Positions 20,279 through 24,287 of a DNA stretch of 64,000 nucleotides are shown here, piece after piece. Source of the stretch: Escherichia coli (GTDB lineage: Bacteria > Pseudomonadota > Gammaproteobacteria > Enterobacterales > Enterobacteriaceae); NCBI RefSeq assembly GCF_044647545.1, contig NZ_CP172818.1. The stretch is one strand, 5' to 3'. How positions within the stretch are numbered: position 1 is the first letter of the stretch; every line of letters starts with the position of its first letter. Under the pieces are notes generated by a model that had not been told where the DNA came from, searched no databases, and saw only the letters and a list, made by a program, of their open reading frames with translations. Position numbers and translations under genes: made by a program.

Positions 20279-23200
20279 ATGGCGAATTTCTTTATTGATC
20301 GCCCCATTTTTGCCTGGGTGCTGGCAATCCTGTTGTGTCTGACAGGGACCCTGGCGATTTTTTCATTGCCCGTTGAACAATACCCCGATCTCGCGCCACC
20401 GAATGTGCGAGTGACCGCTAACTATCCCGGCGCATCGGCCCAGACGCTGGAAAACACCGTGACCCAGGTTATCGAGCAAAATATGACCGGCCTCGATAAT
20501 CTGATGTATATGTCATCTCAGAGCAGCGGCACCGGTCAGGCATCTGTCACGTTAAGTTTTAAAGCAGGCACCGATCCGGACGAAGCCGTGCAGCAAGTAC
20601 AAAACCAGCTACAATCAGCCATGCGAAAGTTACCGCAGGCGGTGCAAAATCAGGGCGTGACGGTGCGTAAAACCGGCGATACCAACATTCTGACCATTGC
20701 CTTCGTCTCTACCGATGGTTCGATGGATAAACAGGATATTGCCGATTACGTTGCCAGTAATATTCAGGATCCGTTAAGCCGCGTGAATGGCGTCGGGGAT
20801 ATCGATGCCTATGGTTCGCAATATTCCATGCGTATCTGGCTGGACCCGGCGAAACTCAACAGTTTCCAGATGACGGCTAAAGATGTCACTGATGCCATTG
20901 AGTCACAGAACGCGCAGATTGCGGTTGGGCAACTTGGTGGTACGCCTTCCGTCGATAAGCAGGCGCTCAACGCCACCATTAACGCCCAGTCACTGCTGCA
21001 AACACCAGAACAGTTCCGCGATATCACCTTGCGGGTGAATCAGGACGGCTCAGAGGTAAGGCTGGGCGATGTCGCCACCGTCGAAATGGGGGCGGAAAAA
21101 TACGATTATCTTAGCCGCTTCAATGGTAAGCCAGCCTCCGGGCTGGGGGTAAAACTGGCCTCCGGCGCGAACGAAATGGCGACAGCGGAGCTGGTGCTCA
21201 ATCGTCTCGACGAGCTGGCGCAGTATTTCCCGCACGGACTGGAATACAAGGTGGCGTATGAAACCACCTCGTTTGTTAAAGCCTCCATTGAAGACGTGGT
21301 GAAAACGCTGCTGGAAGCTATCGCTCTGGTTTTCCTCGTTATGTATCTGTTCCTGCAAAACTTCCGCGCCACGCTGATACCCACTATCGCCGTGCCGGTG
21401 GTGTTGATGGGAACCTTCTCCGTACTTTATGCCTTCGGTTACAGCGTCAACACCTTAACCATGTTCGCGATGGTGCTGGCGATCGGTCTGCTGGTGGATG
21501 ATGCCATCGTGGTGGTGGAAAACGTCGAACGTATTATGAGTGAGGAAGGACTCACTCCTCGCGAAGCCACACGTAAATCGATGGGGCAGATCCAGGGGGC
21601 ACTGGTCGGGATTGCGATGGTGCTTTCGGCGGTATTTGTACCAATGGCCTTCTTCGGCGGCACCACCGGTGCCATCTATCGCCAGTTCTCTATTACCATT
21701 GTTGCAGCAATGGTGCTGTCAGTACTGGTAGCGATGATCCTCACTCCGGCTCTGTGTGCCACGCTACTTAAGCCACTGAAAAAAGGTGAGCATCACGGGC
21801 AAAAAGGCTTTTTTGCCTGGTTTAACCAGATGTTTAACCGCAACGCCGAACGCTACGAAAAAGGGGTGGCGAAAATTCTCCACCGTAGCCTGCGCTGGAT
21901 TGTGATTTATGTCCTGCTGCTTGGCGGCATGGTGTTCCTGTTCCTGCGTTTGCCGACGTCGTTCTTGCCACTTGAAGACCGTGGCATGTTTACTACCTCG
22001 GTACAGTTGCCCAGCGGTTCAACCCAACAACAGACCCTGAAAGTCGTTGAGCAAATCGAGAAATACTACTTCACCCATGAAAAAGACAACATCATGTCGG
22101 TGTTTGCCACTGTTGGTTCTGGCCCTGGGGGTAACGGGCAAAACGTGGCGAGAATGTTTATCCGCCTGAAAGACTGGAGCGAACGCGACAGTAAGACCGG
22201 CACCTCGTTTGCCATTATCGAGCGTGCAACGAAGGCGTTTAACAAGATTAAAGAAGCTCGCGTTATCGCCAGCAGCCCGCCAGCAATTAGCGGTCTTGGT
22301 AGTTCTGCGGGTTTTGATATGGAGTTGCAGGACCACGCTGGAGCGGGTCACGATGCGCTGATGGCAGCACGAAACCAGTTGCTGGCGCTGGCAGCGGAAA
22401 ACCCGGAGCTAACCCGTGTGCGCCATAACGGCCTCGACGACAGTCCGCAGTTGCAGATTGATATCGACCAGCGTAAAGCTCAGGCGCTGGGCGTTGCTAT
22501 CGACGATATTAACGACACACTGCAAACCGCCTGGGGTTCGAGCTATGTGAATGACTTTATGGATCGCGGTCGCGTGAAGAAAGTCTATGTGCAGGCAGCT
22601 GCGCCGTATCGCATGCTGCCAGATGACATCAATCTCTGGTATGTCCGAAATAAAGATGGCGGCATGGTGCCCTTCTCTGCTTTCGCGACCTCACGCTGGG
22701 AGACAGGCTCGCCGCGTCTGGAACGCTATAACGGTTATTCTGCGGTAGAGATTGTAGGGGAAGCCGCACCGGGGGTCAGTACCGGTACGGCGATGGATAT
22801 TATGGAATCGTTAGTGAAGCAGTTACCAAACGGCTTTGGTCTGGAGTGGACGGCGATGTCGTATCAGGAGCGGCTTTCCGGCGCGCAGGCTCCGGCGCTG
22901 TACGCTATTTCCTTGCTGGTGGTATTCCTGTGTCTTGCGGCGTTGTATGAAAGCTGGTCGGTGCCGTTCTCGGTAATGCTGGTCGTGCCGCTGGGGGTTA
23001 TCGGCGCGCTGCTGGCAACCTGGATGCGCGGGCTGGAAAACGACGTTTACTTCCAGGTGGGCCTGTTAACGGTCATTGGTTTATCGGCGAAAAACGCCAT
23101 CCTGATCGTCGAGTTTGCTAACGAGATGAACCAAAAAGGCCACGACCTGTTTGAAGCGACGCTCCACGCCTGCCGTCAGCGTTTACGCCCGATTCTGATG

Positions 23201-23392
23201 ACTTCGCTGGCATTTATCTTCGGCGTATTGCCAATGGCAACCAGCACGGGTGCCGGTTCCGGTGGTCAGCATGCGGTGGGTACTGGCGTAATGGGCGGGA
23301 TGATTTCGGCCACTATTCTGGCTATTTACTTCGTGCCGCTGTTCTTTGTGCTGGTGCGCCGCCGCTTCCCGCTGAAGCCGCGCCCGGAATAA
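20279..23392 (+). CDS. acrD: RND aminoglycoside efflux pump AcrD
   Basis: 1037-aa ORF, AcrB/AcrD family 12-TM transporter. Confidence 0.95.
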
Positions 23393-23403
23393 GCAATAAA
23401 AAA

Positions 23404-23430
23404 GGCGACATGCTAATGTGTCGCCTTTTT
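23404..23430 (+). terminator. rho-independent terminator after acrD
   Basis: ggcgaca tgctaatg tgtcgcc followed by ttttt. Confidence 0.8.
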
Positions 23431-23490
23431 CAACTTTCCGATTAAGAACCTGCTCAGCGGGTTCTTGCTGTTTGTACTTTGTCTCAGGAA

Positions 23491-23550
23491 TTACTTACGA
23501 AGCATAACTTCGATAAAGTCTTTCCAGTTCCCCAGTTCACGTTCAATCAT
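23491..23550 (-). CDS. ypfM: 19-aa small protein YpfM
   Basis: Reverse strand ATG ATT GAA CGT GAA CTG GGG AAC TGG AAA GAC TTT ATC GAA GTT ATG CTT CGT AAG TAA = MIERELGNWKDFIEVMLRK; below the track's size cut-off. Confidence 0.7.
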   Translation of the reverse strand: MIERELGNWKDFIEVMLRK

Positions 23551-23912
23551 AACAACCTCTCTTATAATTATGGGTATTCTACGGAAACAATATACCGTGG
23601 TGAAGCTAATTTACTCGATTGCTGCGATGACTACCTCCGGGGGACAAACCTTATGTAAATACTATGGTCCTGCGGTGATAATTTGTATGTGATACACAGC
23701 AACATTTCGAGATATTCATACGGCATCTAATACTGATTTAATTCTGGTTAAAATACAGACAGATAACAAGATGAATATTCTTAATGTTTACGTTAAAAAT
23801 GTTTAATGTTATTTAATAGTTGTTAATTTGAATACTTCGATAATGTTATATTTCCTGATAATCATTTGCAGGCAAAATGTTTTCACCCTTAAATGAGTAT
23901 TTATTCTCATAA

Positions 23913-24287
<375 letters not shown>

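Follow-up and report, generated by a model that had tools for sequence, protein, structure and literature searches.

The gene analyzed here is that for YpfM of Escherichia coli K-12 (b4606; WP_001386977.1; NF033843), and a few other very small proteins and short transcripts resemble it in one respect or another. AzuC is an amphipathic protein of 28 amino acids, the transcript of which was first listed as an sRNA and is a dual-function RNA (AzuCR). AcrZ, the 49-aa partner of AcrB, is a transmembrane helix, and its gene is not adjacent to acrB. MgtL and TnaC are similar to YpfM in size and in their high conservation and lie upstream of the genes that they control. For YpfM itself, SPA tagging by Hemm in 2008 is said to have confirmed the protein. 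In Salmonella, STnc250 (Rfam RF01409) has been found to contain the ypfM ORF and to be a stable short mRNA of ~220 nt, with a 4x enrichment in the Hfq coIP (24 vs 6 cDNA reads; PMC2515195). A proteomics study of 2025 detected YpfM by top-down mass spectrometry (MS) with 100% sequence coverage and with the formyl-methionine retained, that is, as the untagged, intact 19-mer; the protein was also seen by PRM and DIA, it was consistently detected in low-Mn minimal medium, where it was found together with AzuC, and its detection in an earlier large study of the E. coli proteome was noted (PMC12529367).

We analyzed a window of 64,000 nucleotides of E. coli DNA (contig NZ_CP172818.1), the whole stretch to which all coordinates below refer unless another accession is given, in which an ATG...TAA frame encoding MIERELGNWKDFIEVMLRK occupies positions 23550-23491 of the minus strand. 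The preliminary description had placed a reverse-strand, 19-codon frame delimited by ATG and TAA in the acrD-yffB spacer, and the translation of the window agrees with this: the coding sequence (23491-23550, -; 19 codons plus TAA) starts with ATG at 23550-23548 and ends with TAA at 23493-23491, is convergent with acrD (20279-23392, +) and divergent from yffB (23931-24287, +), and reads ATG ATT GAA CGT GAA CTG GGG AAC TGG AAA GAC TTT ATC GAA GTT ATG CTT CGT AAG TAA. The peptide is identical to the product of the RefSeq CDS ypfM (WP_001386977.1), which is found at the equivalent coordinates in NZ_CP117001.1, so that the earlier identification of the product with annotated YpfM holds. There is no difference from K-12 in the peptide, in the position between acrD and yffB or in the strand relation. 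Of the 5426 complete E. coli genomes, 5425 contain a match to a 551-nt query that covers the spacer, and, among the E. coli genomes listed, the annotation under the spacer match is "ypfM: protein YpfM" (RefSeq); for the 60-nt ORF, the identity is 100% in 4787 of the 5424 records with a match and 95-99% in the remainder. The window frame is the already annotated, experimentally detected small protein YpfM, that is, a known gene and no discovery; predicted since 2001, annotated in RefSeq, represented by an NCBIfam model of its own and detected by MS, it carries little weight as a finding. As a separate observation, in E. coli strain EC488 (NZ_CP109874.1, 1436478-1437805), the acrD-ypfM-yffB spacer is 100% identical and is split in two by an IS1 insertion.

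The gene is useful as a positive control, in that scans that threshold ORFs at >=20-30 aa miss it. The ORF lister had a floor of 20 aa, so the 19-codon frame was invisible to the thresholded track, which accounts for the absence of ypfM from the supplied ORF track that had been pointed out at the start; the more general statement made there, namely, that size thresholds miss genuine micro-proteins, is correct and well established in the literature. The window contains 641 ATG ORFs of 15-50 codons, among which an SD-like motif is present in 19, and at least 18 sense codons follow an ATG ~42% of the time. The bare ypfM ORF is no more than what is expected by chance, and therefore its status as a gene must rest on other evidence; the significance of this ORF comes from conservation, annotation and the published detection of the protein. 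The features that rescue genes of this kind are conservation that depends on codon position, fixed start and stop, and a conserved Shine-Dalgarno sequence, promoter and terminator.

For the comparative analysis, 80 loci were listed from other species of Enterobacterales with the neighboring YffB protein as the anchor, so that the search did not presuppose ypfM. The ypfM frame is kept, on the strand opposite yffB, in 73 of these 80 loci, with peptide alignment scores of 66-100, the second-best score in each locus being 21-33. All 73 frames start with ATG, 71 consist of exactly 19 codons, and the stop, be it TAA, TGA or TAG, is always in the same position; in these yffB-anchored loci, the translation beyond the stop diverges at once, and the constraint ends there. 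The nucleotide entropy at the three codon positions is 0.21/0.20/0.68 and rises to 1.5-2.0 right after the stop. By the Nei-Gojobori method, 62 distinct sequences yielded pS of 0.445, pN of 0.071 and pN/pS of 0.158; in the two shifted sense frames, pN/pS is 1.7-1.8, and stops are present in nearly all sequences. Free variation is confined to residues 4 (R/H/T/V/L) and 15 (V/G/D/A, among others). The gene is distributed among Enterobacteriaceae and extends to Yersinia, Erwinia and Dickeya, and the layout of the spacer, convergent with acrD and divergent from yffB, is retained in 70 of the 73 orthologous loci; in 7 of the 80 listed loci, including those from Lonsdalea, Erwinia psidii, Erwinia endophytica and Kosakonia oryziphila, ypfM was not found beside yffB. 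Judging from these comparisons, ypfM is a genuine protein-coding gene, the reading frame of which is under purifying selection across Enterobacterales. The preliminary description had proposed conservation as a check of the gene, and both the retention of the frame in 73 of the 80 loci and the low pN/pS speak in its favor; the absence of a translation signal, which it had named as grounds for abandoning the gene, is contradicted by the MS detection (PMC12529367).

The signals expected of an expressed gene surround the frame. The Shine-Dalgarno sequence AAGAGAGG (23556-23563, -) has a GAGG core that ends 5 nt before the ATG, and a match to an SD-type tetramer begins at -9 in 68 of 74 sequences, with an entropy of 0.1-0.3 in the core columns. 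A consensus scan revealed a sigma-70 promoter at 23576-23604 (-), consisting of the -35 hexamer TTCACC (23604-23599), a 17-nt spacer and the -10 hexamer TAGAAT (23581-23576). The identical hexamers are given for ypfM in a genomic SELEX study, in which H-NS is placed in the ypfM-yffB spacer (PMC3946193). The CTTCAC and GTAGAAT elements together with the AATAATA-AGA-GAGG leader are conserved across genera, and we infer, from the sequence, that transcription of ypfM starts near 23569-23571. The transcript predicted from the conserved promoter is ~150-172 nt long, which does not match the ~220 nt of the Salmonella Northern.

Several observations pertain to the region further upstream. In many genera, a conserved block, AATCACAGCAATC..GGTTAAAT, is located upstream of the -35 element (~23600-23625, -; about -75 to -50 from the ATG), and it may be a regulator site or an UP element. 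For the ypfM<>yffB spacer of Salmonella, a MarA ChIP peak has been reported. There is also a single chimera with ChiX; it bears the label 'ypfM 5'UTR' and lies at ~23707-23735 (-), ~170 nt upstream of the ATG. Given this chimera and the ~220 nt Northern signal, a further upstream start site for ypfM is possible.

Downstream of the stop, the 3'UTR, with a median length of 93 nt across the orthologous loci, contains a hairpin of the form AAGAACC...GGTTCTT (23444-23466, -) upstream of the terminator, and hairpins that differ in sequence between genera are present at the equivalent place in other genera. When the pre-terminator segment was compared with shuffles in 67 distinct sequences, it proved more stable in 64 of them (mean z -1.69), a count that is not a strict probability because the 67 sequences are phylogenetically related. 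An A-rich linker connects this hairpin with the intrinsic terminator (23398-23432, -), which is composed of an A-tract, a GGCGACA...TGTCGCC stem and U6 and is bidirectional, being common to ypfM and the convergent acrD: 6 nt separate the end of the ypfM U-tract from the acrD stop (the gene ending at 23392), so the terminator serves both genes. A terminator of the GGCGAC type is present in nearly all orthologous loci, and so is the arrangement of the 3' end as a whole. As a minor feature, a small additional hairpin, variable but of the UUUC...GAAA type, directly follows the ypfM stop in many species (within the first ~20 nt in loci L001-L012); this hairpin is absent from the E. coli sequence of the window.

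The 3' part of the gene coincides with STnc250. The Rfam match (RF01409, described as "Hfq binding RNA"; 23392-23511, -) covers the last 6 codons, the 3'UTR and the terminator with 37.1 bits and E = 9e-6, and, although it is full-length with respect to the covariance model (1-94), it falls short of the gathering score (42). The reason is a longer internal insertion in the E. coli 3'UTR, of 37 nt as compared to 13 in the model. By position and by the shared ORF, the window sequence is orthologous to STnc250, with which it has the acrD/yffB spacer and the orientation in common; the model begins with GAAGUCAUGCUUCGUAAAUAA, which is E V M L R K and the stop, and ends at the terminator. The name in Rfam suggests a non-coding sRNA, whereas STnc250 in reality represents the 3' portion of a small mRNA.

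The peptide YpfM contains four acidic and four basic residues. With at most 4 consecutive uncharged residues, it lacks a membrane-spanning segment. Its hydrophobic moment has a maximum, of 0.546, at exactly 100 degrees, and 2.9% of shuffles attain this moment. In the heptad notation, a continuous stripe is formed by I2(d), L6(a), W9(d), I13(a) and M16(d), with F12 and L17 on its flanks. Residue entropy is 0.22 at the a/d positions and 0.19 at e/g, compared to 1.05 at b/c/f, and the two hypervariable residues are located at f and c, the most exposed heptad positions. Most likely, YpfM is a single amphipathic helix that would pack on a partner protein or self-associate. The polar-face residues E5, K10 and R18 are invariant as well, so docking by the hydrophobic face may be too simple a picture.

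Putting these features together, we consider it very probable that ypfM is a one-gene transcription unit that encodes a soluble, trans-acting, presumably helical peptide, which would dock on a partner or on itself, with an Hfq-bound mRNA that ArcZ would repress. The self-contained unit, with a predicted length of ~172 nt, includes the conserved sigma-70 promoter, a ~20-nt leader, the strong Shine-Dalgarno sequence and the 19-codon ORF, and the structured 3'UTR of ~93 nt ends in the intrinsic terminator, back-to-back with the convergent acrD. The product is a stable, soluble 19-residue peptide that acts in trans; most likely, it folds into a single amphipathic alpha-helix and, through the invariant stripe of I2, L6, W9, I13 and M16, would dock on a larger partner protein or on itself. 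Hfq binds the mRNA, and ArcZ pairs over the start and the first codons, presumably repressing translation. With respect to the role of YpfM, the heptad stripe, the link to ArcZ and Hfq and the linkage with acrD should be regarded as leads for experiments and not as results.

The connection with ArcZ comes from Hfq CLASH, in which ArcZ-ypfM accounts for 13 hybrids (MFE -17.6) that were also found by RIL-seq, in the exponential and transition phases (PMC7213987 Supplementary file 3). The ypfM segment of the chimera extends from the start codon to codon 9 (23524-23551, -). We retrieved arcZ via Rfam RF00081 (117.6 bits), and RNAduplex predicts pairing of ArcZ with nt -4..+24 of ypfM at -17.2 kcal/mol, the proposed partner segments being CUGGGGAA and UUCCCUGG. 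The modeled position of the duplex over the ypfM start would be compatible with blocking of initiation. When the natural duplex was compared with synonymous recodings that keep the peptide, the recoded mean was -17.4, with 51% of the recodings equal to or better than the natural sequence; over 63 species, the natural mean was -18.2 vs -17.8 for the recoded sequences, with no trend. We rejected selection on ArcZ pairing as evidence on these grounds, and, the natural duplex being no stronger than synonymous recodings, the pairing may carry little selective weight.

A pattern of a different kind is seen at the synonymous sites of the ORF, some of which are nearly frozen across genera. Codon 5 is GAA in 56 of 56 cases, codon 7 is the rare GGG in 50 of 54 (GGC and GGT never occur), codon 8 is AAC in 49 of 49, and codon 10 is AAA in 55 of 56; for the same amino acids, the codons vary elsewhere in the ORF. 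This block, codons 5-10 (23524-23538, -), overlaps the ArcZ chimera segment. The frozen sites are at most suggestive of a role at the RNA level, but the pattern was noticed post hoc in a gene of 19 codons. Examined separately, the hairpin that the Rfam model places inside the ORF (nt 39-43 paired with 49-53) proved unsupported: it is pairable in 91.4% of cells but shows no compensatory changes and is equalled by shuffles.

The alternative that fares best, although we deem it rather unlikely, is that of a dual-function RNA, in which the transcript, besides encoding YpfM, would have an activity of its own on Hfq, either regulating by base pairing or sponging ArcZ, and perhaps SdsR, similarly to AzuCR and SgrS. 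The likeness to AzuCR is twofold, a very small, soluble protein with an amphipathic helix and a short transcript that associates with Hfq and first came to light in screens for sRNAs, but AzuC has no sequence similarity to YpfM, and a base-pairing role for ypfM is only a candidate. Such a function would fit the enrichment in the Hfq coIP, the fact that the RNA was originally classed among the sRNA candidates, with an orphan pair of promoter and terminator, and a 3' end made up of a hairpin, an A-rich linker and a U-tract terminator. It would be in line, too, with the 13 ArcZ-ypfM chimeras, where most entries have 1, and with the near-frozen synonymous sites of codons 5, 7, 8 and 10, which overlap the chimera segment. 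The chimeras, however, are silent on which RNA regulates which, and an ordinary relation of an sRNA to its target explains them; the ArcZ duplex is no better than recodings either in E. coli or in the 63 species; the Rfam intra-ORF hairpin shows no compensatory change; and the synonymous pattern is a post hoc one in a 19-codon gene. Furthermore, STnc250 was reclassified as a small mRNA by Sittka et al. (PMC2515195). There is perhaps a slim chance that the start-proximal segment (codons 5-10) and the Hfq-binding 3' end let the ypfM RNA titrate ArcZ or be co-degraded with it; if true, this would link a micro-protein gene to the ArcZ/RpoS network.

An additional small RNA might be relevant in the same context. 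A fragment labelled 'pphA 5'UTR' (AAGAGCCATTTCCCTGGACCGAATACAGG...), which we take to be the sRNA SdsR/RyeB, has the UUUCCCUGG motif in common with the ArcZ seed. One chimera joins the ypfM coding region to this fragment (PMC7213987 Supplementary file 2).

The neighborhood of ypfM offers another candidate function, namely, that the peptide assists or regulates the RND efflux pump AcrD, in analogy to the pair of AcrZ and AcrB, which we regard as very unlikely. The two genes are convergent and have one terminator in common, and among the 80 listed loci ypfM and a convergent acrD are both present in 70 and both missing in 6 (L053, L061, L067, L073, L074 and L075); ypfM occurs without acrD nearby in one evaluable locus (L079, Dickeya), and acrD without ypfM in one (L080, Erwinia endophytica). 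In most Enterobacterales, then, the two genes are acquired or lost together beside yffB, with these two exceptions. Co-occurrence of adjacent genes, however, is predicted by physical linkage alone, and the two exceptions, where each gene is found without the other, also speak against this reading. The likeness to AcrZ, a small protein tied to an RND pump, holds for YpfM by gene position only, and it is precisely in this respect and in topology that the two differ: AcrZ is a transmembrane helix encoded away from acrB, whereas YpfM, adjacent to acrD, cannot span the membrane. A functional link of the AcrZ-AcrB type is a long shot because YpfM has no membrane segment.

Still less probable, in our estimate, is a cis-acting leader or regulatory peptide, for which, as in the case of MgtL or TnaC, the act of translation would matter and not the product. 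Stalling leaders are typically peptides of very small size and high conservation, and MgtL and TnaC were detected in the same MS study as YpfM, but YpfM accumulates as the intact 19-mer (PMC12529367). Moreover, unlike the genes for these leader peptides, ypfM has no gene downstream on the same strand; it is followed only by the conserved terminator and then by the 3' end of the convergent acrD, and, lacking a downstream cistron, the leader-peptide model was rejected.

Finally, we give practically no credence to a chance frame, in which the conserved element would be a non-coding RNA or a gene of the opposite strand (+ strand ORFs of 75 aa and 59 aa lie over ypfM): short ORFs are abundant by chance, and none of the species has a stop in the codon-complementary antisense frame, the pN/pS of which is 0.317, but the sense pN/pS is lower (0.158), the positions of ATG and stop are fixed in the sense frame only, and the exact 19-mer has been seen by MS (PMC12529367). 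The antisense value is the expected mirror of the sense-frame signal. The antisense 75-aa and 59-aa ORFs were rejected as a real gene on account of their unconserved boundaries; the antisense open span is variable in length (35-145 codons) and continues into flanks that are under no constraint, and therefore is not a gene. The reading as a chance frame is refuted by the MS result together with the pattern of conservation over codon positions.

Returning to YpfM as a soluble peptide, orthologs with longer products are seen in two species. In Lelliottia nimipressuralis (L027; start at locus nt 2611, -), N replaces K as residue 19, and a sense codon takes the place of the stop, resulting in a 30-aa product, whereas in Yersinia nurmii (L071; start at 1457, -) there is one additional C-terminal Ala, for a total of 20 aa. 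No Pfam family was found for these longer natural variants. The NCBIfam model NF033843 (small_YpfM), an equivalog of 19 positions with a cut-off of 33 bits, was scored against these longer natural orthologs, giving 50.2 bits for the Lelliottia protein (30 aa) and 32.1 bits for the divergent Yersinia protein (20 aa). Within residues 1-18, position 15 is the only one at which the 30-aa variant of Lelliottia and the window peptide differ.
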